A stretch of 60,100 nucleotides of DNA, filler included, from Hausera hauseri (Eukaryota), in assembly GCA_046269625.1 (NCBI GenBank). It is 10 parts of 10 records of this genome, joined end to end, with 100 filler letters (N's around TTAATTAATTAA, not from the genome) between each part and the next. Parts side by side here need not be neighbours in the genome. Positions count along the whole stretch, not along the records: positions 1 to 12,844 come from JBJURY010011122.1; 9 more parts are not named here. One strand, 5' to 3'. Below the pieces are notes generated by a model. The model was not told the origin of the DNA. It did no database searches and worked only from the letters and a program-made list of their open reading frames with translations. This document shows positions 1 through 46,000 of this stretch, one piece after another (position 1 is the stretch's first letter; the number at the start of each line of letters is the position of its first letter). A program made the translations under genes and the position numbers.

Positions 1-2189
1 GAATAATTTTCAGATTTCAGAGACATTCTAGCATTGTAATCGTCTACTACTACCGCATTGTATTGCGCCACACATTTTCAATGATGTTTCATGTCGCGTT
101 AGTGAACACCACCATACACCCATTCCCCTAGTGCGCTAATATACGGATCTCACACGATGCGATTTTTAACGCACAACGCGTTTCGTGTTATTTTTCACCA
201 TCTCACAATGATGTGATCGTGAGGCGCTATTAAAATGAAACGCGTGCCACATGACGGGCTGTCTGACAGATTTCCATCACCGACGGACATGGACAAGGAG
301 GAATTTTTTGAGCATCAAATTTGCCCCTACGTTTTCCCCATGATCCTATGTTCGGACAAATTTGTAAGTGTGCATTCGATTCCTCGATATCGATTTCACC
401 CTTGTTCAGAGTATTAGTGTGCTAGCAGCCTGTGTCGCGTTACGCGTGGTACATTTCCCGTTTTGCTTTTTTGTTCTCTAGCTCCTCTCCTTTACATTTG
501 TGAGCTTACAGGCGATAGTAATTATTGCTTTACTTGTCACGCAATATATATTTCGCTTGCTGCAAATTACGTCTTGGCTTTGACGAATACAAACTTATTA
601 CCAATTGAAAATAAAACGGGTTCTTATAAATTACTTACAAATAGTAAGTAGCATATTCCAAACTTTTATTTCAAAAGTGAGATGACACTTCTACCTACTA
701 CGGCATGTCAATTGATCATGTGTGACCTGTGACTAGCTATTAAATTCCATAATTTGCTCGATGGCCAAAAGCGTTGGACATCCCTGATGTATGGTGTCCA
801 CCTAACCCTAAACGTAGTCCTAAATCATACTACGAAAGCATCAGTCCAAAACGTTGATTCAAGAAAAGTTTTCTCGATTTTTCTGTGCTGCAAAACTGAT
901 TTTTTGTGGATTAGATTTACGGTTAGGTTTAGTAATATGTTTGGAGTTGGATGGACATCATTGTGTTTTATGTTATAGGAGAATTATGTACAAGTGTATC
1001 ATGGTCAAATTTTACAATTTGTAGTTCATTTAAATAATAAATTTAAACAATGGAAATTACAAAAATGTTTAGAAATTGATCAAAGAAATATTAGATAATA
1101 ACAAAAAGGATCAGTGAAGAAAATCTTTATTGATATCACTGGGAGACGAAACGATATCAGTAAACCTGATACTGAACAAAAACTCCATTTTGACGGATGT
1201 CATAATACATACAAACAACACACATTGTAGTAAATCATTATATAAAAGAATGGATAAAATCGGAACAGAATATGTTGACAATAACCAATAACTGATCTTT
1301 CAATAGTAAAACATGATCACTCCAACAGATTTTAGTAAAAGTAATAAAAATTAATAAATGTTAAACAATCTATACAACTGGGAAAGTTATTCATTGATAA
1401 ATTAGGAACAAAATAGCATCGAATAAAAAATAAGAATGGCACATTATCATGAAGTAACAAGTCAGGCACTACTGCAAACTGACTGGATCGCAGCTTAACT
1501 TCTTACCAGCGAGAATACTTGATAGACTGTCCGGGAGACCTTTCAACTGTTCCTGTCAAATACTGCAATATGAATTATTGCATTAGTAAGATACATGCAC
1601 AAAATGCACAATTATATGAGGTCATGTTCAATTCACCCCATGATGTACCGAATAGTGAGAATAGTAGAATTTTCGCTACATTACAGAGTCATGATGACGT
1701 TTAGATAAACAAGATAAGTTCACTGTCAAAGTTTTACAAGCCTAAAAGTTTTGACTCTCACTGAGAAAAATATGAAGCATAAACGAAACGTTTCCAAGGA
1801 CAGAAGTCTCTTATCGGCACTTCTGGCATAAGTAATTCCAATATATCATGGTAAACTACTTGTCCAGGAATTTCATGCTGATTAATAATATGAAAACTAA
1901 GATTATGTAATATAGGCCTCTAAATGTTACGACATTTGCACTTCTTCAATTTTCTCCCAAACATGCAGAGGAATTTTCAAATTTCGCAAAATTTTCCTTT
2001 TACAATAAGGTCACAAATAAAATAAAATAATTTTCAATAAACTCAAAAATCGAATTACCCATTACAAAATATTCAGTACGCAGTACAAACGAAACAACAA
2101 TTTTAATTTGCCAACAAGATAGAATAAATAACAAAAATTATTAAACTCGATATAATAAACTAATATAAGATATTGCTGATTAATAATAA

Positions 2190-2459
2190 AATTTACAACT
2201 ACAATTTGCAGTGCTAGAAATGTTGGGCATATTTTAAAATAGAATCCGAATGCTGAATGCTAAAACGTCAAGTAAAACCAAAGCTGACACTCCATTTCAA
2301 AGAAGCACGTATAAAATTTGCTAGAAACTCCATGTCTTACGATGATAAGTACAAATATGGTAATAAGTGGAACACCAACGGTTCAGACAGATTCCAGTAT
2401 TACTGGCACCATTTGCATAACTATGCCGAATTAATAATCAGTCGAAATTTGGTGGTGGT
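2190..2459 (+). pseudogene. Tc1/mariner (Tc3-like) transposase fossil, 5' part
   Basis: Reads SARNVGHILK..KRQVKPKLTLHFKEARIKFARNSM..KWNTNGSDRFQYYWHHL..SRN(F)GGG. This resembles the Tc3-type pattern KPxLTxxHKxxRLxFA..KFNLDGPDG.xYWxDLR..RRNFGGG. Frameshifted and degraded. Confidence 0.8.
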
Positions 2460-5400
2460 TGTGGTTGTGGTTGTGATTGTGGTGGTGGTGGTTGTGATTG
2501 TGGTTGTGGTGGTGGTGATTGTGCCTGTGCTTGTGCTTGTGGTGGTTGTGGTTGTGTTTGTGGTGGTTGTGGTTGTGGTGGTGGTGATTATGGTTGTGGT
2601 TGTGGTTGTGGTGGTGGTGGCGGTGATTATCGTTGTGGTTCTGGTTGTGGTTGTGGTTGCGGTTGGGATTGCGTTTGTGGTACTCGTGGTGGTTGTGGTT
2701 GTGGTAATGGCGGTGATTATGGTTGTCGTTGTGGTTGTGCTGGAGGTGGCGGTGATCATGGATGTGGTTGTGGTTGCGGTTGTGGTGGTGGTTGCGGTGG
2801 CGGTTACGGTGGTTGTGGTGGTTGTAGTTGTGGTGGCGGTGACTGTGGTTATGGTTGTGGTTGCGGTGGTGGTGGTTGTGGTTCAGTTGGTGGATGTGGT
2901 TGTGGTGGTGATGGTTGTGGTTCTTGTGGTGGTTGTGGATGTGGTGGTTGTGGTTGTGGTTCTGGTGGTGATGGCGGTGATTATGGTTGTGGTTGTGTTT
3001 GTGGTGGTTGTGCTTGTGCTTGTGGTGGTGGCGGTGATTATGGTTGTGGTTCTGGTTCTGTTGGTGATGGCGGTGATTATGATTGTGGTTGTGATTGTGG
3101 TGGTGGTGGTTGTGATTGTGGTTGTGGTGGTTGTGGTTGTGTTTGTGGTGGTAGTGCTTGTGCTTGTGCTTGTGGTGGTTGTGCTTGTACTTGTGGTGGT
3201 TGTGCCTGTGCTTGTCGTGGTGGCGGTGGCGGTGATCTTGGTTGTGGTTGTGTTTGTGCTTGTGGTGGTGGTTGTGCTTGTGCTTGTGGTGGTGGTTGTG
3301 CTTGTGTTGTGGTGGTGGTGGTTGTGCTTGTGGTGGTAGTGGTTCTGGTGGCGGTTACGGTGGTTGTGGTTGTGGTGGTTGTAGTTGTGGTGGCGGTGAC
3401 TGTAGTTATGGTTGTGGCTGTGGAGGTGGCGGTTGTGGTTGAGGTGTTGGATGTGCTTGTGGTGGTGATGGTTGTGGTTGTTGTGATGGTTTTGGTTGTG
3501 ATGGTTCTGGTTGTAATTGTGGTGTTGGTTGTAGTTGTGGTGGTTGTGGTTCTGGTTGTGGTTCTGGTGGTGGTGGCGGTGATTATGGTTGTGATTGTGG
3601 TAGTGCTTGTGCTTGTGCTTGTGGTGGTTGTGCTTGTGTTTCTGGTGGTGGCGGTGATAATGGTTCTGGTTCTGATTGTGCTTGTGGTTGTGGCGGTGGT
3701 TGTGGTTGTGGTGGTGGTGCTTGTAGTTGTGGTTGTGGTGGTTGTGGTTGTGGTTGTGGTGGTGCTTGTTGTTGTGGTGGTGCTTGTGGTTGTTGTTGTG
3801 GTGGCGGTTACGGTCGTTGTGGTTATGGCTGTGGTGGTGGTTGTTGTGGATGTGGTGGTAGATGTGGTTGCCGCGGTGATAGTTGTCGTTGTGGTGGAGG
3901 TTGTGGTTGTGGTTGTGGTGGCGGTTACTGTGGTTGTGGTTGTGGTGGCGGTTACGATGGTTGTGGTTGTGGTTGTGCTGGTTGTGGTTGTTGTGGCGGC
4001 GATGTTGGTTGTGGTTGTGGTGGTTGTAGTGGATGTGGTTGTGGTTGTGGTGGTTGTGGTTTTTGTGGTGGTGATTCTGGTTTTTGTAGTGGTGGTTCTG
4101 GTTGTGGTGGTGCTTGTTATTGTCGTGGTGCTTGTGCTTGTGGTTGTGGTGGCGGTTACGGTGGTTGTGGTTGTGCTTGTGGTGGTAGATGTGCTTGCGG
4201 TGGTTGTGCTTGTGCTTGTGGTGGTGGCGGTGATTATGGTTGTGGTTGTGGTTATGGTTGTGGTGGTGGTGGTGGTGGTGGTTGTGGTTGTGGTTGTGGT
4301 TGTGGTTGTGGTGGTGGTGGTTGTGCATGTTCTTGTGCTTCTGGTGGTTGTGTTTGTGCTTGAGGTCGTTGTGGTTGTGCTTGTGGTGGTGGCGGTAATT
4401 ATGGTTGTTGTCGTGGTTGTGGTTGTGGTTGTGGAGGTAATGGTTCTGGTTGTTGTGGTGGTTCTGGTTGTTGTGGTTGTTCTGGTTGTTGTGGTGGTTC
4501 TGGTTGTGGTGGTTAGGGTTGTGATTGTGGTGTTGGTTGTGGTTCTGGTGGTTGTGGTTGTGGTAGTGGTTGTGGTGGCGGTTACGGTGGTTGTGGTTGT
4601 GATTGTGCTGGTTGTGGTTGTTGTGGCGGCGATGTTGGTTGTAGTTCTGATGGTGGTGGCGCAGATTATGGTTGTGCTTGTGCTTGTGCTTCTGCTTGTT
4701 GTGGTTGTGGTCGCGTTGGTGGATGTGATTGTGGTGGTTGTGGTCGTGATTGTTGTGGTGGTTGTGATTGTGGTGGTGCTGGTAGATGTAGCTGTGATGG
4801 TGGAGGTTCTGGAGGTGGTAGTGGTTGTCGTTGTGGTTTCGTTGACAGTAGTTTTGGTTGTGGTGCTAGTTGTGGTTGTGGCTGTGGTGGCGGAAACGGT
4901 GGTTGTGGTTGTGGTTGTGGTGGTGGTGGTTGTGGTTGTAGTTGTGGCTGTGGTGGCGATTACGGTGGTTGTGGTTGTGGTTGTGCTGGTTGTGGTTGTT
5001 GTGGCGGCGATGTTGGTGGTGGTTGCGGTGGTGGTGGTGGTTGTGGTTGTGGTGGTGCTTGTTGTTGTGGTTGAGCTTGTGGTTCTGGCTGTGGATGTGT
5101 TGTGGTCGTGGTAGTTGTGCTTGTGGTTGTAAATGTGGTGGCGGTTACGGTCGTTGTGGTTGCGGCTGTGGTGGTGGTGGTGGTTGTGGATGTGGTGGTG
5201 GATGTGGTTGCCGCGGTGATGGTTGTGGTTGTGGTTGTGCATGCGGCTGTGGTGGTGATGGTTGGGATTGTGGTTGTGGTAGTGGTGATTGTGCTTGTGC
5301 TTGTGCTTGTGGTGGTTGTGGCTGTGTTTATGGTGGTTGTGCTTGTGCTTGTGGTGGTGGCGATGATTGTCGTTTTGGATGTGGTTGTGGTTGTAGTGGT

Positions 5401-8400
5401 AGTGGTTGTGCTCGTGGTGGTTGTGCCTGTGCTTGTGCTTGCGGTGGTTGTGCTTGTGCTTGTGGTGATTATGCCTGTGCTTCTGGTGGTGGCGGTGATG
5501 GTGATCATGGGTGTGGTTGTGGTTGTGCTTGCGGTGGTGGTAGTGCTTGTGCTTGTGCTTGTGGTGGTTGTGCTTGTGCTTGTAGTGGTTGTGCCTGTGC
5601 TTGTCGTGGTGGCGGTGGCGGTGATCTTGGTTTTGGTTGTGTTTGACCTTGTGGTGGTGGTTGTGCTTGTGCTTGTGGTGGTGGTTGTGGTTGTGTTGTG
5701 GTGGTGGTGGTTGTGCTTGTGGTGGTAGTGGTTCTGGTGGCGGTTACGGTGGTTGTGGTTGTGGTTGTGGTGGTTGTAGTTGTGGTGGCGGTGACTGTAG
5801 TTATGGTTGTGGCTGTAGAGGTGGTGGTTGTGGTTGAGGTGTTGGATGTGCTTGTAATGGTGCTGGTTGTGGTTGTTGTGATGGTTGTGGTTGTAATTGT
5901 GGTGTTGGTTGTGGTTGTGGTGGTGGTGGTTCTGGTTGTGGTTCTGGTGGTGGTGGCGGTGATTATGGTTGTGATTGTGGTAGTGCTTGTGCTTGTGCAT
6001 GTGGTGGTTGTGCTTGTGCCTCTGGTGGTGGCGGTGGCGGTGATCATGGTTCTGGTTCTGATTGTGCTTGTTGTTGTGGTGGTGCTTGTGGTTGTTGTTG
6101 TGGTGGCGGTTACGGTCGTTGTGGTTGTGGCTGTGATGGTGGTGGTTGTGGATGTGGTGGTGGATGTGGTTGCCGCGGTGATGGTTGTCGTTGTGGTGGA
6201 GGTTGTGGTTGTGGTTGTGGTGGCGGTTACTGTGGTTGTGGTTGTGGTCGTGGTTGTGGTGACGGTTACGGTGGTTGTGGTTGTGGTTGTGCTGGTTCCG
6301 GTTGTTGTGGCGGCGATGTTGGTTGTGGTTGTGGTGGTGGTGGTGAATATGGTTGTGGTTGTGGTGATTGTGGTTTTTGTGGTGGTGGTTCTGGTTGTGA
6401 TGGTGCTTGTTATTGTCGTGGTGCTTGTACTTGTGGTTGTGGTGGCGGTTACGGTGGTTGTGCTTGTGCTTGTGGTGGTAAATGTGCTTGCGGTGGTTGT
6501 GCTTGTGCTTGTGGTGGTGGCGGTGATTATGGTTGTGGTTGTGGTTATGGTTGTGGTGGTGGTGGTGGTGGTGGTTGTGGTTGTGGTTGTGGTTGTGGTT
6601 GTGGTGGTGGTGGTTGTGCATGTTCTTGTGCTTCTGGTGGTTGTGTTTGTGCTTGAGGTCGTTGTGGTTGTGCTTGTGGTGGTGGCGGTAATTATGGTTG
6701 TTGTCGTGGTTGTGGTTGTGGTTGTGGAGGTAATGGTTCTGGTTGTTGTGGTGGTTCTGGTTGTTGTGGTTGTTCTGGTTGTTGTGGTGGTTCTGGTTGT
6801 GGTGGTTAGGGTTGTGATTGTGGTGTTGGTTGTGGTTCTGGTGGTTGTGGTTGTGGTAGTGGTTGTGGTGGCGGTTACGGTGGTTGTGGTTGTGATTGTG
6901 CTGGTTGTGGTTGTTGTGGCGGCGATGTTGGTTGTAGTTCTGATGGTGGTGGCGCAGATTATGGTTGTGCTTGTGCTTGTGCTTCTGCTTGTTGTGGTTG
7001 TGGTCGCGTTGGTGGATGTGATTGTGGTGGTTGTGGTCGTGATTGTTGTGGTGGTTGTGATTGTGGTGGTGCTGGTAGATGTAGCTGTGATGGTGGAGGT
7101 TCTGGAGGTGGTAGTGGTTGTCGTTGTGGTTTCGTTGACAGTAGTTTTGGTTGTGGTGCTAGTTGTGGTTGTGGCTGTGGTGGCGGTTACGGTAGTTGCG
7201 GTTGTGGATATGGTGGTGGTGGTTGTGGTTGTAGTTGTGGCTGTGGTGGCGGTTACGGTGGTTATGGTTGTGGTTGTGCTGGTTGTGGTTGTTGTGGCGG
7301 CGATGTTGGTGGTGGTTGCGGTGGTGGTGGTTGTGGTTGTGGTGGTGGTTGCGGTTGCGGTGGTGGTTGTGGTTGTGGTGATGGTGGTTGTGGTTGCGGT
7401 GGTGGTGGTGATGGTTGTGCTTGTGCTTGTGCTTGTCGTGGTTGTGGTTGTGGTTCTGGTGGCGTTGATGGATGCGATTGTGGTGGTTGTGGTAGTCGTT
7501 GTGGTGGTGGTTGTGATTATGGTGCTGGTGGTGCATGTGGTTATGGTAGTGGTTGTGGTGGTGCAGGTTCTGGTTGTGGTAGTGGTTGTGGTTGTGCAAA
7601 TTCTGCTTGTGGTAGTGGTTGTGGTTGTGGTCGTGGTGGTTGTTGTCGTCGTTGCGGTGACAGTTGTTCTGGTTGTAGTCGTCGAGGTGGTTGTGGCTGT
7701 GCTGGGGGTTACGTTGGTTGTGGTTGTGGTTGTGGTGGTGGTGGTTGTGGTAGCTGTTGTGGTGGAAATGGTTGTGCTTGTGGTAGTGGTTGCGCTTGTG
7801 ATTGTGTTGGTGGTGGTTGTTCTTCTGGTTCTGGTAGTGGTGGCCGTGATTATGGTTGTGGTTGTCTTCGTGGATATGTTCTGGTCGTAATGGTTGTGGT
7901 GTGGTGGTGGTGGATGTGGTTGTGGTGGTGCATGTGGTTGTGGTTGTGGTGGCGGTTACGGTAGTTGTGGTTGTGGTTGTTGTTGTGGTTGTTGCATTTC
8001 TGGTTGTGGTGGTGGTGCTGGTTGTGGTTCTGGTGGTTGTGGTCGTAGTTGTGGTGGTGGTTGTGATTGTGGTGGTGGTGGTGGTGGTGGAGGTGGATGT
8101 GGCTGTGGTGGTGTTTGTGGTGGTGGAGGTTGTGGATGCGGTTGCGGTTAGACTGGTTTTGGTTGTGGTGGTAAATGTGGATGTGCTTTTGGTGGTGGTG
8201 GTGGTGGTGCTTCTTTTTGTGGCGGTGCTTGTGGTTGTGGTTGTGGTGGCGGTTACGGTGGTTGTGGTTGTGCTTGTGGTGGTTGTAGTTGTGGTTGTAG
8301 CGGTGGTGATTGATGTGGTTCTGGTGGTTGTGGTCGTGGTTGTGGTGGTGGTGGTTGTGATTGTGCTGATAGTGGTGGTGGTGGATGTGGTGGTAGTCGT

Positions 8401-10990
8401 TGTGGTTGTGGTTGCGGTGACAATAGTTTTGGTCGCGGTGGGGTTTGTGGTTGTGGCGGTGGTGATTGTGGTTGAGGTGGTGATGGTTGGGGTTGTTGTG
8501 GTGGTTGTGTTTGTGATTGTGGTGTTGGTTGTGGTGTTGGTTGTGGCTGTGGTTGTGGTGGTTGTGGTTTTGGTTGTAGTGGTTGTCGTTGTGGTGGAGG
8601 TGACGGTGGTTGTGGTTGTGATTCTGGTGGTGGTGGCAGTGATTATGGTTGTGGTTGTGGTTGTGTTGTAATGGTGGTTGTTGTGCTTGTGGTGGTAGTG
8701 ATTCTGGTGGCGATTACGGTGCTTGTGCTTGCGGTTGTGTTGGTTGTAGTTGTAATGGCGGTGACTGTGGCTATGGTTGTGGTTGTGGAGGTGGTGGTTG
8801 TGGTTGAGGTGTTGGATGTGCTTGTGGTGGTGATGGTTGTTGTTGTTGTGGTGATTTTGGTTGTGATGGTTCCAGTTGTAATTATGGTGTTGGTTGTGGT
8901 TGTGCTGGTGGTGGTTCTGGTAGTGGTTGTGGTGGTGGTGGTGGTTGTGCTTGTGGAAGGTGTTGTGCTTGTGGTTGTGGTGGTGGTGGTTCTGGTTGTG
9001 GTTCTGGTGGTGGTGGCGGTTATTATGGTTGTGATTGTGGTAGTGCTTGTGCTTGTGGTGGTTGTGCTTGTGCCTCTGGTGGAGGCGGTGGCGGTGATCA
9101 TGGTTCTGGTTGTGACTGTGCTTGTGGTGGTAGTTGTGGTTGTGGTTGTGGTGGTGGTGATGGTTGTGGTTGTGGTTGTGTTGTGGTGTTGGTGGTTGTT
9201 CTTGTGGTGGTGCTTGTCGTTGTGGTTGTGGTGGCGGCTACGGTCGTTGTGGTTGTGGTTGTGGTTCTGGTGGTGGTGGTTGTGGTGGTGGATGTGGCTG
9301 TGGCGGTGATGGTTGCAGTTGTGGTGGTGGTTGTGGTTGTGGTTGTGGATGCGGTTGTGGTGGTGATTGATGTGATTGTGGTGGTTGTGTTCGTCGTTGT
9401 GGTGGTGGTTGTGATTGTGGTGGTGGTGAATGTGGTTGTGGTAGTGGTTGTGGTGGTGCAGGTTCTGGTGGTGGTAGTAATTGTGGTTGTCGTAGTTGTG
9501 ATTGTGGTGGTGGTGCTGATGGTGGATGTGGCTGTGGTGGTGGTCGTGGTGGTGAAGGTTGTGGTAGTGGTGGTGGTGTATGTGGTTGTGGTTGTGGTGG
9601 CGGTTACGGTGGTTCTGGTTCTGGTTCTGGTGGTTGTAGTTGTGGTTGTGGCGGTGGTGATTGATGTGGCTGTGGTGGTTGTGGTCGTGGTTGTGGTGAC
9701 AGTTATTTTGGTTGTGGTCGTGGTCGTGGTTGTGGCTGTGGTGGCGGTTACGCTGGTTGTGGTTGTGGTTGTGCTGGTTGTGGTTGTTGTGGCTGCGACG
9801 GTGTTTGTGGTTGTGGTTGTTGTAGTGGATGTGGTTGTGATGGTTGTGATTGTGGTTGCGGTGACAGTTGTTTTGGTTGTGGTCGTGGTCGTGGTTGTGG
9901 CTGTGGTGGCGGTTACGGTGGTTGTGGTTGTTGTGGCGGTTACGGTGGTTGTGCTTGTGCTTGTGGTAGTGGTTGTGCTTCTGATTGTATTGGTGGTGGT
10001 TGTGGTTGTAGTTCTGGTGGTGGTGGCAGAGATTATGGTTGTGTTTGTGCTTGTAGTTGTGATTGTGGCGGTGGTGGATGTGATTGTGGTAGTGGTTGTG
10101 GTGGTGGTGTGGTGGTTGTGCTTCTGCTTCTGCTTCTACTTGTTGTGGTTGTGGTTGTGGTTGTGGTGGCGTTGGTGGATGTGATTGTGGTGGTTGTGGT
10201 CATGATTGTTGTGGTGGTTCTGATTATGTTGGTGGTGGTGGATGTGGCTATGATGGTGCAGGTTTTGGTGGTGGTAGTGGTTGTCGTTGTGGTTTCGTTG
10301 ACAGTAGTTTTGGTTATGGTGGCAGTTGTGGTTGTGGCTGTGGTGGCGGTGACGGTGGTTGTGGTTGTGGTTGTGGTGGTGATGGTTGTGGTGGTGGTGG
10401 TGGTGGTTGTGGTTGTGGTGGTGTGGTTTTGGTTGTGGTGGTGGATGTGGTTGTGGTTGTGGTGGTTGTGGTTGTGGTGGTGGTGGTTGTAGTTGTGGTG
10501 GTGATAGTTGTGGTTGTTGTGGTGCTTGTGATTGTGTTGGTGGTGGTTGTGCTTCTGGTTCTGGTAGTGGTGGCAGTGATTATGGTTGTGGTTGTGGTTG
10601 TGGTTATGTTGTGGTCGTAATGGTTGTGGTTGTGCTGAAGGTGGTTCTGGTTCTGGTTCTGGTGGTTGTGCTTGTGCTTGTGGTAGTGGTTGTGCTTGTG
10701 ATTGTGTTGGTGGTGGTTGTGCTTCTGGTTCTGGTAGTGGTGGCAGTGATTATGGTTGTGTTTGTCGTCGTGGTTATGTTCTGGTCGTAATGGTTGTGGT
10801 GTGGTGGTGGTGGATGTGGTTGTGGTGGTGCTTGTGGTTGTGGTTGTGGTGGCAGTTACGGTGGTTGTGGTTGTGGTTGTGGTGGCGATGACGGTGGTTG
10901 TGGCTATGGTTGTGGTGGTTGTGGTTGTGGTGGTAGATGTGGTTGTGGTGGTGATGATTGTGCTTGTGGTGGTGGTTGTGCTTGTGGTGT
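2451..10990. repeat. ~8.5-kb degenerate trinucleotide (GTG/GTT) satellite with higher-order internal duplications
   Basis: The + strand is almost entirely G/T with period 3. Rare marker words recur: gcggttacgg many times, and tttcgttgacagtagttttgg at 4837, 7130 and 10293. Block 4321-4890 repeats at a constant offset of 2293. Confidence 0.97.
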
Positions 10991-11145
10991 TCGACTGATT
11001 TGAACTGCATAGAAAATTTATTGGGTATCATGGCTCGTCGAGTATACAACGATTTTAAGCAGTATAAAGGAGGAATTTAAAATACAAGGCAAGATTGAAT
11101 TAAAATTTTGTAAATTGGATGCAAGATAGAATTTTGCTGTTATTT
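10985..11145 (+). pseudogene. Tc3-like transposase fossil, 3' part
   Basis: W-CSTDLNCIENLLGIMARRVYNDFKQY from 10985 matches the WPxxSPDLNPIENxWG..RRVY motif. It is followed by NFVNWMQDRI(F)AVI, similar to LVxSMPxRIxxVI. Confidence 0.85.
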
Positions 11146-12844
11146 ATTTTTCTACATTTGTTTTCGTGTATTTTCTTTAAATAAATTGATATGCCTTTAA
11201 CCTTTCTTCATCCTCCCCTAAATTACTAATTTTACGTATATTTCTGGAAATATCTGGGTAGATAATCTGGTTTTTACAGACATTTATTACTTATTGATAT
11301 TTAATCATTATTTAATAAGTACACTTTATTAGAAATAAAAGTTACGAAGAATATTATAAAAACGTCCTTTCTTTTACTTCCCACCACCATTGTATGTATA
11401 AGTTGTCGTTCCACATGCCTTTAAGTCAAAGAATTAGAAGTCAAAACGTTCCTTGTGGCAACATTAAAACTTGGTATATTCAATAAGAGAGTCCAATGAA
11501 CTTTCGAAATTTATTAAATGGCTTAACAAATAAGATACGAAAGGCGAACTTTCCTACACCAAATTTAATAAAATTTTATCGGAATATTATTAACGATTAC
11601 AATAATTCAATTTTAATTGAAACAAAGAGAACACATTGTATACGTGTTCAATATTCCATACCATGTTACATTCAAAGTTACAAAAATTATCTGAATGTAA
11701 CACATATTAATGGATACACNNNNNNNNNNCAATGGTCAAATTGAACAATAGCTATATAAAAACCAAGACAATAAATATCTAGTAAATTATATACCTTATA
11801 ACGTATAATAATATTTACACACAACTGAATTGAACATTGATAATTGGTAACTATGCAACTATTACAATTCAGATTTGCTCATATGCAATGTGTCTTTTAA
11901 CATGTGTCACATTCAATGAAATTTGATAGTTTTGAATGTAAGACTTGTTACGAGATACTGCGCATTAAATTGATAAACTAAACCAACAATTATTTCATAA
12001 TTTTTTGGCAAAATTTTTTTCAAAGCTTTAATAATTTTCAGAAAAAGAATATTCTTAAATTTAATGTGCAGCAGGTCAACTTAGAACTCAACAACAAATG
12101 CCTTTCAAGGCCATCGAAGGTCACTCTTTTTCAAAATGTTGCAAAATAATTCAATAAAAATTATTTTCATCCGATTTTCAAAGTAATCGACAATATCATC
12201 AATGTACCTGAAGCGCCAGAAGATTATCTTCGATTTTCGACATTCTCTGCTCTAAACAAGAATGTTTCAATCGCGTTTCGGCATCTGTTTTGTAAATATT
12301 TGTGTCTTGTCTGAGTCGACCAGTATATTTGAGTTCGCTTTGAACAATCTTTAATCACTTATTTTTTATTTTTTTTAGTCAAAGTATTGTGTCTATCGTA
12401 TGTTCTACTACTAGGCTCGTGTGTTCACTGAATATACCGGCAGTCACAGTTGGAAAAGGGAATTTGCTCAACCTGTTTGATTCGTTAACATGGCTATTTT
12501 GTCAACTATAAATCGAGCGAGAGGGCGAAGAATCTATGTTTATCGATACTGAATGAGGATACAATGGCGGAAATATTACGAATCGATTTTTCTATTGTTA
12601 TGAAGGATGTCACTTAATGTGAACTGAAATAAGAGATGGAGTGAACCGATTGATGCTGTAACGGATATTATGATGTATGACAGAAGAAATACGTAATGAT
12701 TGACGCAACTGATGGTTTCTTTGTTGTATATTGACTTGTCATACAGAATGGGCGATAAACTGTAATTGATGGGCCATATATTGAGAAATTGACAGGGAGT
12801 GATGTGGACGAGAAGGTGAGGTAGAGAATTGGTATCTGACTGAA

Positions 12845-13879: not shown

Positions 13880-15851
13880 AACGCATTGTCGATGCTATTT
13901 TCATTCTCGAGGAGGAGCCACTACACTCTGACATCTCGAAACAACTCGATTTTCTAATCGACAGGGGTGCAGCTTTATCGCTCATACATAGCGCATACAC
14001 TAGACCTACGCTGGTCTCGCATGCACCGCTCAAAGCTGCCAATGGCACGCGAATAGCAACCACAGGTACACTATCCTAAACAAGATGCACCGTCCATCTT
14101 AACAGCAGATGCATCTACAATCGCTCCAGGCACCATGCTTGCCCAGTCAATCGATGACAAAAATGCTCCCATTGAATTATTTTCCCACAAATTCAATTCG
14201 GCTGAGCAACGCTATTCAACTTTCGACCGAAAATTGCTAGCTATAATTCTTAGTGTCAAACACTTCAGACATTTCCTCGAAGGAAATGTGTTCAGAATCT
14301 GCACAGATCACAAACCACTAATTCACATGATGAGTAAGAAAAACCCATCGCCTCATCAAGAGCGACACGTCTCATTTCTATCAAAATTCTCATTCCAGAC
14401 AGCGCATATAACTGGAAAAGACAACACAGGTTCTGACTTCATTTCCAGAACTGAAATATCGACGATATCCTTCGACCCAATTTTCACGGAAGAGATTCTC
14501 CGATCGAACCCTCCACATGAAGACTATGTTACGTTTTTCAAAACAGTCGACACAAAAGATGGAATACACTACAACACCATCCTCAATGGTTGTCCACGCT
14601 CAATTCTGGCAGCAAACCTACGGAAACAGGCGTTTGACACCATTCACAACATCTATCACCCTGGATCAAAAGCCACAGAACGCCTATTAAGCAGTAGAGT
14701 CTGTTGGCCTCTCATGCTAATCAACATAAAGCGGTGGAAAAAAGAATGTTTGCTTTGCCAACAGTATAAAGTCAACAATACTATACAACCACCATTCCTA
14801 CACTATCCTACTGGCTCACGGTTTGAAGCCATCCACATGGATATAATCGGACCAATTCCCGAATGTAACGGATATCAGTACATCCTAACCATTCTCGACC
14901 GGGAAATAAGATGGCACGAAGCCATTCCCATCAGCCAGATAACAACGCAAAGCGTTGTAGCTGTATTGCTAAATACATGGATTTCTGGGTTCGGAGTACC
15001 TAAAAGCATTATAACAGATCAGGGTACCCAATTCGAGTCAGCCACGTTTAACCAATTAACCAAATCGCTGGGTTTCAAGATATACACACATCACCCTATC
15101 ACCCGCAAGCGAATGGCTTGATTGAACGATTTCACAGTACACTCAATAATCCCTACGTATCCTATGCCATGATAACAAGAACTGGCTGGATGCATTACTT
15201 ATTGTGTTCCTAGGGTGCAGAAACACTCCCAACACTAGCACTGATGCCTCTCCGGCACAACTATTTGGTGCCCACCTCACTTTCCCACAAGATCTGGTGA
15301 GCACTGAGGAAGTAACTTCCATTCCTCCTCTCAACCAAGCTCGGCAGCATTTCTTGTCAATAGACACGAACCCTGCATTCCACAACAATCACAAAAAACC
15401 AATCATGCCAAAGAATCTACAGGATGAGTCCTTTGTCTGGCTCAAAAGCCAACAAAGACACGGTTTTGAACCATACTACACGGGCCCCTACAAGCTCATA
15501 GAAATCACTGAGCACAACGCCAAAATAATAGGCGACAATGACGAACATATAGTCCACTTGTCGAATGTAAAACCCGCGTTTGGCTATTATGATTCCAATA
15601 CGGAAGATGCTATCCAACAAGACGTACCCAGCATGTCAGAAGTAGACCAGCTTCTCGAAAACTACAAAATTGATCCATTCAATATGGACACTCCCGTAGC
15701 ATATGACCCGACCTCGGTCCAAAATGAAACACGCATTACCCCAACACCCTTACTTCCGGAAACGAAACGTACGACAATACGTAATCAAATCCCTGCTGCA
15801 CCGGTATCGAATAGCACCAGGAGTGCATCTAAGATACCCAGACTTCATTGA
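13880..15851 (+). mobile_element. Ty3/Gypsy pol remnant: protease, RNase H, integrase, GPY tail; RT missing
   Basis: Protease FLIDRGAALSL..LKAANG (13951). RNase H LTADAS..AEQRYSTFDRKLLAI..TDHKPL. Integrase HxxYHPG..CLLC, HMDIIGP, ITDQGTQF. YTGPYKL. Frameshifts present. Confidence 0.93.
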
Positions 15852-17790: not shown

Positions 17791-20700
17791 CAACGTTAAA
17801 CTATGAAGCGTAAAAAAATAGAGCGAAAAAATCGCAAAACGAAAAATGTTTGTGTCAGTTGAGCTTAGTGTGAGTAAGGCGTTAGGTACCTTCGACTGAT
17901 TTTTCCCTGCTATACTTGCTGAATGTGACTCTGCGTGTTGTGTCTTTATGCGATGTGTTTGTGTCCAGAGATTGAGGTTGGGGGAAAAATTCGTTAGATT
18001 TTGGTTTTGGTGTTGTACCATGCGAAGATGAGTCGGAATAAAGAGAAGAAGAGGATGAAGAAAGAAGAGGGATTGTTGAAGATGGATGGTTAAAGGCATT
18101 GAAAAGAGTGTTAGAAGACGAAGGAGTGATGAAAGATGTAGTGGCGGATAAAGGAAGATAGGAAAAAGTTGGAGTAGAGATTGGAATTGTGCTGAGTGAA
18201 AGAGTGGAAGAGGAAAATGATACAGAGGGAGTGGTAGAAATAGAAGTAGAATGTGTAGAAAATGCTGTGGCAGGACTAAGAGCAGAAGAGGAAGGTGGAA
18301 ATGATGTAGTAATAGATATAGGGATAGCAGGGAGTGGAGAAGTGAGAAAAGAGGTTGACGTGTCAATTTGTAAGGTGTAGTCGACAAAGAAAGCGGGTTT
18401 TAAGTTGGTAATGTGTATTCTAAGGTCTTTGCCGTCTTTAGAGATAATGACGTTATGTGAGTGCAGCTGTATCGGTTTATAGGGCCCCAGGTACCGTGAC
18501 TGAAAACCTGAAGGCGCTTGATTCTTTAGCCACACGAATTTTGCTAAATACAAATCTTCGGGTATGTTTTGTCTTTGTGAAGTACACTGCAGAACGAATC
18601 TTTGCTGACCTTGACGAAGTGATTTTGTACCGCTCGTATCGTCTCATCTGTGGGAGTGTCGTTTAGGGCGGTTAGTTCGAACAATGATCGTACAGGAGCT
18701 CCGAATAAGGCTTCAGTAGGTGAGCATCCTGTAGAAATTGGCAGTGTTCCGCCAGCCGAGCAGAACAAACGGAAGAAGATTCACCCAACTAGTGTTGGAC
18801 TCTGTGAGAATTCGTAGTGATGTTTTAAATGTTCGGTGGAAATGTTCTAGAAGGCCAATTGATTGGGGGTGATAAGGCGTAGTATGTATGTGATAAATCC
18901 CCAATCGGTTAACAAGGGATTTGAACAGGTTGGACTCGAACTGTGGACCCTGGTCCATGATGATGAAGAGAGGTGATCCAAACCTGCTAATCCATGTGCG
19001 AATGAAAACGTCAGCTATAGTGCCGGTATTTATGCTCCGCAGAGAAATGGCTTCTGGCCATCTCGAGGAATGGTCCATCATGGTGAGGATGAATTGATGA
19101 CCGTTGTCTGGAGGAAGAGGGCCAACGATGTCGATATGCACGGATTCGAAACGCGATGTGCAGGGAAAGTGGAATAGTGGTGGCTTTAAAGGCTTAGCTT
19201 TTTGCATTTTTGGCAAGCCACACTCACTAACCCATGACTGCACATCAAAACGCATTGACGGCCATATTACTTGTCGAAGGAGTAGACGAAAAGTGGCTTT
19301 AGCACCAGGGTGGTGTAGCGAATGTACGCTGTTGAATACTTGCCTTTGCAAGGTGGTGCAAGTATTATTGCGGAATGACCTGGTTTGGAAGTGTCAACGA
19401 TTGTGCAATACTTAAAAGAATTAAGCATGTCCTGATGTGACTAGTTCTGATGAAGTTTATCTTACGTAAAGATCGGTGAAAAATTAATCGAACTAACCGA
19501 CCTCGATAAAAAGTCAGCAACTAATTTGTTAACCCCGTTAATATGTTTAATATCGAAGTAAAATGTCGATAAGTATGATATTTGTCGTTCTTGGCGTGTG
19601 GAAGGGTGTTTCAAAGCCATGATGTTAAGTAAAGGTTTGTGATCGGTTTGTATAGTGAAATGACGAGCGACAAGTAGGTGTTAAAAATGCTTTAGAGCGA
19701 AAACGATGTCCAATAGTTCTCGATCGAACGTGGAATATCTGGTTTCAGGTGCTGTTAGCTTGCGAGCAAAAAATTCTAGAGGTTGATTTTCTCCCTTGTA
19801 GATCTGGTGGAGTACAGCGCCTACTGAAGTGGTTGACACGTCTGGAGTAAGGATGGGTTCTGCATCAGGCTTGGGGAAAACGAGAATATCGGCGGTCTTA
19901 ATTCCTTCACGTAGTTTATCAAATTTGTCAACCAATTCATGTGCCCACTGGATTGGCTGATGTTTTTTGCCGCCTTTTAGATGTGCGAATGGTGCTGTCA
20001 TTTCGGAGCAATATAGTACATATTTATGTACAAAGTGTAGTGTGCCAAGGAAGCTACGCATTTCGGTGGTCGTACGTAACAACTGGATATTTTTAAGAGC
20101 TTCGACTCGGTCTGATTTGGGGGAATGACCGTCTGGTGAAATAACGTGGCCTAAAAAGTTAATGCGTTTTTTGAAGAAATGGCATTTGTCGAAATTGACT
20201 TGGAGATTATGGTGGTTAAGACTTTGGAATGTTGCAATAAGGTGTTCCTCGTAATGTTTGGCCGAAGACGAAACGACTAGAATATCATAGATATAAGGGT
20301 GTCAAACGGGAAATCTGAGAGAATTGAATCAATGTGCCGCTGAAAAGTTTGTGCGGCATTCCGCAAACCGAATGGCATAAACAGGTATTCGTAGAGACCA
20401 AAAGGAGTAGTGGCAGCAGTTTTTTCTATGTCTTCGAGTGCTACCGGTATTTGATGGTATGCTTTAGCTAAATCAATGGTCGAATAGATGGTGGTTGAAT
20501 TAAGACTATGCAAGATATCCTTGATAAGTAGTAAATGGTACGCATCCATTATAGTCAAGGTGTTTAGCTGTCGGTAGTCACCGCATGGTCTAAAAGTACC
20601 GTCCTTTTTTGTACAACGCGTAAAGGTAATGACCAAGGAGATTTGGAACGGCGTACTATTCCGGAACGTTCTAGTTCAAGAAATTCGGTTTCTACGGCCT

Positions 20701-43022: not shown

Positions 43023-46000
43023 TGGACTCCATCTATGAACTTCTCCCTGCTGTAAGTGCTAAACGTCACATGACGTGATCTGTTAGATGTTGCTAGTGCT
43101 TGTGGAGTTGTTTGGGGGAGATATACTGTTGATTTTGTGGTACTAGAGGATGCTTCATGAAGAGGTGAAAGTGGAGAGGAAGCTGAAAACGGAAAAGGAT
43201 TACGCTAAGAAGACGATACTCGAGATTGCAGCGAATCGTGCGATGAAGGTGAAATGAATATTGGATGTGCAGGCAATGACGGATAAACAAATGGTAAAGG
43301 AGCATCGATGATAACGAAAGTAAAGAGAACTGATCGTGACGCGATAGTGATGGCTGCGAAGAATTAAAATCATTAAGGAAATTAGATGATGGCTCGAGGG
43401 TAGAGAAGTTAGAGTCAGGATTTGAAACAATGCTGTAAACCTGGTAATCATCAATGAAGAAGGCTGGCTTAAGATTAGAAATGTGTACATTATTGGGTTG
43501 ATTCTTGCGTAAAATAGTGGCAGTGTGCGAAGAAAGGCTGAGTAATTTGTAAGGTCCAACGTATTGAGGCCGATAACTAGAAGATGACGGATCCTTCAGA
43601 CATACAAACTTGGCTGAGTATATGTCCTCTGGAATATAAGATTTGTCTTTATTTATAAGACGGCAAAAGGTGTTTGAGTTTACCTCTACAAAGTGGGACT
43701 GTGCTGCACAAATGACTTAATCTGGTGGACTTTCATCCAGATTGAAGAGCTCAAATAGTGCACGAATTGGTGTCCCAAATTGAGCTTCAGCCGGGCACAA
43801 CAGGTGGTAGTGGATGGCGTGTTGCGCCAACCAAGTAGAACAAGAGGAAGAATCGAGGTCCAATTACGATTGTTGTTTGCCAAGATTTTTAAAGAAATAT
43901 TCATGTTGCGGTGAAATCTTTTAAGAAGACCATATGCTTGGGGATGATACGGCGTCGTATGGAAGTGGGATATCCCCAAGTGCTTTACTAAAGATTCAAA
44001 AATATCAGCTTCAAATTGCGGATTCTGGTCCGGTATGATGTGATGTGGTGAACCAAAACGGCTGACCCATATCTTGATGAATGCATCTACTACTGCGTCA
44101 GTGTTGGTTGATCGAAGCGAAACGGCTTCAGGCCAGCGGGAAGCACGATCCATCATGGATAAGATGTACTGATAGCCGTTGTCGGATGGCAAAGGATTGA
44201 CAAGATCTAAATACACAGTGTCAAAACGGGACATATAAGGGAAGTGGTAAAGTGGTGGTTTTAGGTGTTTGTGGATCTTGTATTGCTGGCATTCTGCACA
44301 TCCCTTGACCCAGATCTGTACATCTGCAAGCGTAGTTGGCCATACAACGTGGCGTTGCAGTAGGCGAAATGTGGCTTTTGAACCCGGATGATGAAGAGAG
44401 TGAAGGTGGTTGAAAGCTGTCTTTTGCAGTGATGGTGCAAAAATGATTTTCTTGTTGATCGAGTTGGAAGTGTCATAAGCAATGCCATCGATGATTTCAA
44501 CAGATTTAAAAGCTTGGAGAATGTTAGATGATGGCTGATTACTTCTCAGGACCTCATTGGAAAAAAGTGGCTGAACTGTAATTGAGTTAACCGACCGCGA
44601 AAGGAAATTCGCTACTAAATTTTCGGTGCCTGAAATATATTTCATGGAAAAACTAAACGTCGACAGGTATGATATCTGTCATTCTTATCTGGGCGATGGC
44701 TGTTTCAAAGTCATTATATGAAGTAGAGTCTTGTGGTCGGTTTGGATGGTAAATTGATGTGAAAGAAACAAGTACTTGTAATGCTTCACCGCTAGAACTA
44801 CAGCCAAAAGTTCACGGTCGAATGTTCAATATCGGCTTTCCGATAGCGTGAGCTTTCGAGAATAGAACTCTAATGGTTCATCGACGCCATTGCATATTTG
44901 GTATAATATCGCACCAGTTTCTGTGGTTGAGGCATCGGTAGTTAATATTAGTTCAGCGATTGGTTTTGGAAAAGCCAAGATTTCCACAGTTTTCAAACCT
45001 TCACGAAGGCGATCAAATTGGTTTACCTGATCGAGATTAATTTTCTTTTCTTCCCAGATGAGAGGTGTGCGAACGGTGCCGTTAGTTCGGAGCAGTGTGG
45101 CACGTATTTGTGTACGAAATGCAATGTCCCTAGAAAACTCCTCATATCGGTAGTAGTAGTTGGCAACGTCACACTTTTTAATTGTTGTAAGCGATCAGGC
45201 TGGGGCGAATGCCCTTCGGGAGTAATTATGTGGTCTAAGAAGTTTACGCGTTTCTGGAAGAAATTGCATTTGACAAAATTAATTTGCATGTTGCTTTGAT
45301 GCAATCTGTGGAAGATAATTCTAAGGTGCTCATGATGTTGTTTGATGGAGCTGGAAGCAAGTAATATGCCATCTATGTATGGGTGAGCAAAATCAAGACC
45401 AGAAAGAACGGCATCAATGTGGCGCTGAAAGGTCTGAGATGCGCTACGAAGGCCGAAAGGCATGAAGATGTACTCATAAAGACCAAATGGTGTGATGACA
45501 GCAGTTTTTGGAATGTTATCAGGGGCAACAGGAATTTAATGGTAGACTTTGTGTAGATCAATAGTAGAATAGGTATTGGTGTTGTTGAGGCTATGAAGAA
45601 TGTCTTTAATGAGTGGTAGTGGATAGGCATCTGTAATAGTTAGATTTTTTAACTGTCGATAGTCGCTACATAGCTTATAGGTACCATCTTTCTTTACCAC
45701 TACATGAAGAGGAGAATCCCACGGTGAATTCGATCTGCGAATGATACCAGACCTTTCCAGTTCATTAAATTCCTGTTCCGCAGCTTTACGTCTATGTGGC
45801 GACAAAGGTTTGACCTTTTGTTTGATCGGTCTCTGATGCTCTGTTGCTATGTAATGATAAGTTGTGGATGGACGCTTGAAGTTGACGTCCCTTTTAACTA
45901 TGCGAAAGCAAGACGTTGTGACATATGATTTAAGATTGGAGTCTAGAGACAAGAATGAATGAGGTATATCATTAGAGAGAACAGCTCCAGTGATTGACGA

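Follow-up and report, generated by a model that had tools for sequence, protein, structure and literature searches.

A degenerate GGT/TGT array in place of the core of a Tc1-like transposase copy in Hausera hauseri, with a probable origin in three glycine codons

Tandem repeats in mobile elements and the present locus

L1 and Alu elements contain proto-microsatellites which, according to PMC3812793, yield microsatellites after insertion. A sub-threshold tandem is present in every element copy and expands post-insertion in some of them; the tracts described there are short and mostly A-rich (PMC3812793). Microsatellites at a common site of L1 ORF2 (Duffy et al. 1996) are listed in a review (PMC9659126) and represent recurrent microsatellite birth at one coding-region site, in that case of a retrotransposon. 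Tandem DNA has also been tied to Tc1/mariner elements. The same review names the miDNA4 MITE of Xenopus tropicalis, Mboumar of Messor and the Bari1 clusters, which are internal MITE repeats, an element inserted into a satellite, or whole-element arrays (PMC9659126).

The locus described here shares some features with each of these systems. It differs from the L1 and Alu cases in having a DNA transposon as host, a conserved run coding for Gly-Gly-Gly as presumed seed, and an 8.5-kb degenerate array with higher-order duplications as product. In contrast to miDNA4, Mboumar and Bari1, a 3-nt unit would have expanded within a single copy, which is immobile and has no 5´ terminal inverted repeat (TIR).

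The window, i.e. the whole stretch of DNA analysed, is 60,100 nucleotides long. Our analysis concerns contig C11122, which occupies positions 1-12844 and comes from a very fragmented assembly (869 Mb in 909,086 contigs); the rest of the window consists of unrelated stretches. Decayed pol fragments of LTR retrotransposons (RT_RNaseH, Integrase_H2C2, rve) were observed there at 14057-15118, 18716-19393 and 43689-44678, and three of the six ORFs in a Pfam scan of the other stretches had no match.

The host copy and the array in place of its core

The locus is composed of the following features (window positions, strand in brackets):

1864-2169 (no strand): two unrelated repeat fragments in place of the 5´ part of the element
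2206-2459 (+): left transposase fragment, decayed, from the second HTH region to SRN-GGG; consensus 235-505, 78%, E 4e-60
2451-2459 (+): seed GGT GGT GGT, the three Gly codons of the family and the first three triplets of the array; consensus 497-505
2451-10987 (+): degenerate GGT/TGT triplet array, non-coding; 8,537 bp, 2,837 triplets, 12 phase shifts
10988-11144 (+): right transposase fragment, starting at C-S-x-D-L-N-x-I-E and including the codon of the catalytic Glu; consensus 736-924, 70% with gaps, E 8e-24
11129-11394 (+): 3´ end of the element with its TIR; CATTG ends at 11392 and is followed by TA

When the genome was searched with either flank and with an intact copy's core, 45 loci of the family were obtained. 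The working consensus made from them is short by about 7 bases at two places, which is visible as a 6-nt insertion shared by copies near column 580. Family copies are star-like and dead, 7-15% distant from the consensus. The left fragment is interrupted by stops and frameshifts, has lost 15 bp over the first-Asp motif, and mismatches the consensus at 37 of 236 bases (15.7%); the first 80 bases of the right fragment differ from it at 10 (12.5%). Contigs L003, L006 and L008 each match both flanks in order, and the similarity of L003 to the left flank starts at position 2190. The first-pass annotation had placed the two flanks on the same strand in collinear order, while allowing for their descent from different Tc1 families. 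They are indeed collinear on one strand, in the order of the consensus intervals listed above, and both belong to one family, as defined by the consensus of assembly copies.

By its sequence matches we assign the host to the Tc1-type (DD34E) transposons. Pfam DDE_3 matches L008 (640-825) above the cut-off with E 6.4e-9, L115 matches Sleeping Beauty (PDB 5cr4, E 4.6e-5), and the second Asp and the Glu are 34 residues apart in L008, the sole readable copy of the eight examined. No DDE match was obtained for two of the four family fragments or for the right fragment of the window. HTH_Tnp_Tc3_2 is found in L004 with E 3.2e-4 and 21.3 bits, below the cut-off of 31.5, and in the left fragment of the window with E 0.085. 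The match to Tc3 itself (PDB 1u78) is weak (E 0.28), and the likeness of the element to Tc3 in particular is presumed from its motifs. Copies of the family end in CCACTG-TA at the point matching the 3´ end of the window copy, and an inverted copy of this end is present at the 5´ end of L004. The family thus resembles Tc1, Tc3 and Sleeping Beauty in its DDE_3 domain, its D-34-E spacing and its ends followed by TA, whereas the window copy lacks its 5´ end and both Asp regions, the first of them deleted within the left flank. No 5´ TIR was found in window 1-2210. Adjoining the truncated 5´ end are a high-copy 100-bp repeat (1864-2001) and a segment that matches L002 (1990-2169), a locus we take to be decayed and mariner-like.

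At the left junction the family reads CGA AAT TTT GGT GGT GGT ACA. The window copy has one T fewer, in the F codon, and continues with GGT GGT GGT TGT GGT in unchanged triplet phase. The array therefore starts on consensus 497-505 with phase kept, which agrees with the earlier description of a left flank merging into the repeat at GGT GGT GGT. On the right, the W formerly read as part of a transposase motif W..CSxDLN belongs to the array; the family has W-P-A-C-S-P-D-L-N, and homology resumes at 10988. In 16 copies, the piece missing between the two junctions measures 203-257 bp (233-241 in most of them), which gives about 237 bp or ~79 codons. These 16 copies bear out that the replaced core includes the second catalytic Asp. 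No remnant of the core was found in the array or elsewhere on contig C11122. An 8.5-kb GT-rich array in place of a transposase core, the central claim of the first-pass annotation, is hence confirmed, at 2451-10987 between collinear halves of one copy.

Under a triplet phase model, the array consists of 1,135 GGT (40%), 763 TGT (27%) and 33% variants, chiefly GCT (139), GAT (122), GGC (111), AGT (83) and TCT (82), followed by rarer ones. Purity is flat from end to end (0.62-0.73) and no pure run exceeds 7 GGT or 5 GGTTGT. The 12 phase shifts are all alike, each falling short by one base as though GG had lost a G. Several share their contexts (3306/5695; 7878/10608/10778; 7901/10801), which reduces them to at most 8 events. 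G-to-C variants amount to 8.8%, compared with a neutral rate of 1.3% in the family (~7x). Founder effects are the sole account that we can offer for this excess and for the one-way phase shifts, founder amplification being assumed. Impurity, ~13% per base, was considered as a measure of age and fits the age of the transposon, but an unrelated array on scaffold C7 has nearly the same value (~12%), so that impurity does not discriminate.

Two copies of a long internal duplication are recognizable:

3127-5057 (+): 1.9-kb internal duplication, copy 1; offset 2.3-2.4 kb; contains the 705-bp exact core (4189-4893)
5513-7347 (+): 1.9-kb internal duplication, copy 2; 91-95% identical to copy 1 overall, exact core at 6482-7186

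The exact core, lying within a duplication otherwise 5-9% diverged, may reflect either recent gene conversion or collapse by the assembler. Self-comparison of the array reveals a further duplicate (7772-7980 and 10672-10880, 96% identity) and several pairs of 0.3-0.4 kb at 77-87%, so that identities range from 100% to about 80% overall. Of 188 segments of the array, 60% had a paralogue that exceeded the 99th percentile of a null based on a second-order Markov model. Some words are regional, such as a 21-mer present at 12 places, all within 2526-6518; others are array-wide, such as a 15-mer whose 12 occurrences stretch from 2799 to 9935, and both ends of the array have private words in common. 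Because the identities of duplicates are so widely spread, we infer that the array was probably long already during much of its past and continued to duplicate.

The presence of other copies of the array, a check proposed in the first-pass annotation, was examined in the assembly. Three diagnostic words are confined to contig C11122 (3/3, 1/1 and 12/12 matches) and occur on no other contig. A generic 21-mer of the array has 29-31 of its 35 matches on C11122, the others being on C7, C4231, C377102 and C411589. A classical satellite has a homogenised monomer and occupies several loci or reaches very high copy number. Within this assembly our array answers to neither description: TRF reports periods of 6, 21 and 39 with matches of just 64-66%, and the diagnostic words lie on one contig. 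The label "satellite" was therefore overstated, and for this assembly we speak of an unhomogenised array at a single locus.

Could the array be, or have been, a gene? On the plus strand it might encode a repeat protein rich in Gly and Cys, on the minus strand one rich in Thr, and such a gene would have been captured by the transposon or recruited from it. Triplet phase is strong, in-phase words like GGYGGCGCG occur, open frames reach 897 codons and the Thr frame has one in-phase stop only. However, Thr-frame stops require two changes from ACC/ACA, the Gly/Cys frame contains 14 in-phase stops, and the 12 phase shifts interrupt the array, some of them inherited by duplicates. The same third-position T pattern characterizes unrelated GGT/AGT arrays (C7 and C411589). 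Further, the synonymous share of 72 differences between duplicates is at the neutral expectation in each of the six frames (P 0.42-0.82); this test covered 1,654 aligned bases in six duplicate blocks, which are not fully independent, and used the substitution spectrum of the family itself. Coding in any frame is rejected on the stops, the phase shifts and the neutral synonymous share in six frames. We regard a past or present gene as very improbable, and the array is most likely without function.

A different concern is that the assembly joined two family copies through the repeat, or distorted the length or order of the array. The assembly is fragmented enough to invite such errors, scaffold C7 links unrelated simple repeats over 100-N gaps, and the 705-bp exact duplicate within a duplication of 91-95% identity may be a collapsed consensus. 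Of 834 words sampled from 2190-11145, read run X1 holds just 0.69, mostly array words, and X1 is probably the source sample, hence not independent. The other 23 of the 24 read runs hold 0.06-0.10 of the words, and X2, X3 and X5 gave no left-flank match; they provide no evidence either way. Against an artefact stand the lack of any N in 1-11719, flanks that are collinear and similarly decayed halves of one family, the private words common to the two array ends, and phase shifts inherited between duplicates, unlike random errors. In addition, a 629-nt X1 contig matches 2190-2444 without a single difference and continues arrayward for at least 109 nt, its repeat letters being masked from 2445. 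We consider an artefact improbable as a whole. That two collinear halves and one private array were falsely joined by chance seems unlikely; of the two faults, an error in array length is the likelier, and the true length is uncertain.

Growth from the seed and a templated alternative

The first-pass annotation offered two origins: GGT codons that seeded a runaway expansion, or replacement of the core through microhomology at both junctions. Sister copies of the element are informative in this respect. Within consensus 140-947, the three GGT codons are the sole tandem of three or more copies. The seed is spanned by 25 copies, 20 of which came from similarity searches and 5 from pattern searches that required an intact seed. 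Two of the 25, both from the similarity searches, are expanded at the seed. L065 (contig C319042, 1-809) carries seven GGT there; this locus also holds a second, inverted piece of the element in head-to-head arrangement. L050 reads GGT AGT TGT TGT GGT GGT at the seed; TGT units thus arise in such tracts. Only 3 insertions of at least 3 nt occur in the other 18,662 aligned bases, which predicts 0.044 at the seed (P 0.0009). This background leaves out one N-containing insertion and columns 576-584, where the consensus is short, and with them a 26-nt insertion in L008; if that insertion is included, P is about 0.002. The seeding branch thereby gains direct support from L065 and L050, expanded at the same site as the window copy.

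Since L065 and the left flank of the window have one derived base in common and differ by 22.7%, the expansion in L065 is best read as an event independent of the window copy. The same 22.7% difference rules out L065 as an allele or direct precursor of that copy. Loss of a T before the seed, common to the window and L065, was considered as a trigger and discarded: L115 lost the T unexpanded and L050 expanded without the loss. Two exact-pattern searches returned no further expanded copies, although their patterns would have missed L050 and L065 as well. Copies of intermediate length, with tens to thousands of units, were not found.

We propose, with a probability of roughly 0.6, that the array grew from the seed by slippage and then, still in place, by segmental duplication, and that the deletion was a separate event. 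Firstly, replication slippage would have lengthened the GGT GGT GGT seed, and an early G-to-T change would have produced the GGT/TGT mix. Secondly, slippage and duplications of 0.2-2.4 kb, the latter likely through unequal exchange, would have spread variant words over much of the life of the copy. The loss of about 237 bp on the right would represent an event of its own, a deletion whose ends were joined at a TG overlap of 2 nt. Growth in place is likely because the array starts on the seed and two sister copies expanded at the same spot, and the similar decay of the flanks, given above, may be counted in its favour. What counts against it is that expansion alone leaves the 237-bp loss unexplained, so a second event is needed. 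A deletion induced by G-quadruplexes is not favoured for this event; a three-tetrad motif is absent from the array, and it is 3´ of the G-rich strand that the bases were lost. Deletions in dog-1 span 50-300 bp, a range that includes 237 bp, according to PMC9097270, and a title cited there puts deletions upstream of DNA rich in guanine, the opposite side to the loss here.

Alternatively, deletion and insertion may have occurred in one step. The element would have been broken, a 3´ end ending GGTGGTGGT would have primed on a GGT/TGT array elsewhere, and the copied strand would have been rejoined 237 bp downstream; the insert would then have grown by duplication. This explains both changes together, and interrupted gap repair with capture of filler by DNA transposons is on record in PMC3014272. 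Potential templates of a general kind are also available, as the genome contains other multi-kb NGT arrays (9.8 kb on C7, 4.9 kb on C411589) and GGT tracts cut at contig ends (C377102, C4231). On the other hand, no donor is present in the assembly, the diagnostic words being confined to C11122. The C7 array is excluded as donor, as it is of the GGT/AGT type and has exact runs of at most 23 nt in common with ours. The seed site, moreover, expands unaided in sister copies. As for microhomology at both junctions, that on the right is at chance level (2 nt; TG makes up 27% of array dinucleotides), whereas the 9-nt seed on the left could prime a templated insertion. The absence of a donor is itself a weak point of the case for growth in place, as the assembly consists of 909,086 contigs and GGT tracts elsewhere in it stop at contig ends. 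We judge templated insertion to be rather unlikely, yet it is the more serious of the competitors.

The other repeats deserve a brief description. C411589 (L098, 1-4862) is a 4.9-kb degenerate GGT/AGT array. Scaffold C7 (L099-L102, 1-25233; 26 kb) is made of unrelated degenerate repeats (AACG/AAGG, GAA, AGAGAC and GGT/AGT) with eight 100-N gaps; its GGT/AGT (9.8 kb), AGAGAC-type (6.5 kb) and GAA-type (2.4 kb) arrays are joined over such gaps, and it is likely a false scaffolding. The GGT/AGT arrays of C411589 and C7 (15420-25233) both have GGT/CGT sub-domains, with exact runs of up to 77 nt in common, and contain 0 and 7 phase shifts, respectively; they are probably one family or alleles. Another repeat is present in 83% identical copies on C377102 (L097, 1252-2105) and C4231 (L068, 1-973). 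Both copies run into GGT-rich sequence at one and the same point, where they break off, and an integrase-like fragment, presumably Polinton-like, lies nearby. This may be a second seed site. Multi-kb degenerate microsatellites are a feature of this genome; the type of array is ordinary, and what is unusual is its identifiable birthplace.

Codon runs as a possible source of giant repeats

Microsatellite birth in TEs is an established process, and with no evident function of the array, our finding is surprising to a limited extent only. A microsatellite born in a TE is expected to have its seed in the consensus at the array edge and to be accompanied by independent expansions in sister copies; both hold here. 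The small independent expansions at the seed of sister copies are what is new. In the open-access literature searched, we found no case of a transposase codon run grown to kilobases; as to direct precedents, the searches yielded nothing beyond reviews of a general nature.

For large simple-repeat arrays the starting sequence is rarely known. Here the ancestral state is fixed by ~25 sister copies, and one genome offers stages of 3, 6, 7 and ~2,800 triplets. The path from a proto-microsatellite to kilobases, and the shares of slippage and segmental duplication in it, thereby become testable.

We tentatively suggest, at well below even odds, that the Gly-Gly-Gly coded by GGT-GGT-GGT in Tc1-type transposases is a nursery of giant repeats, and that other multi-kb arrays likewise come from codon runs of mobile elements. 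If this is true, then dead copies would plant seeds across the genome, a few per cent of them would lengthen and rare ones would reach many kilobases. The present locus would be a fully bracketed record of such growth, from 9 bases to 8.5 kb.
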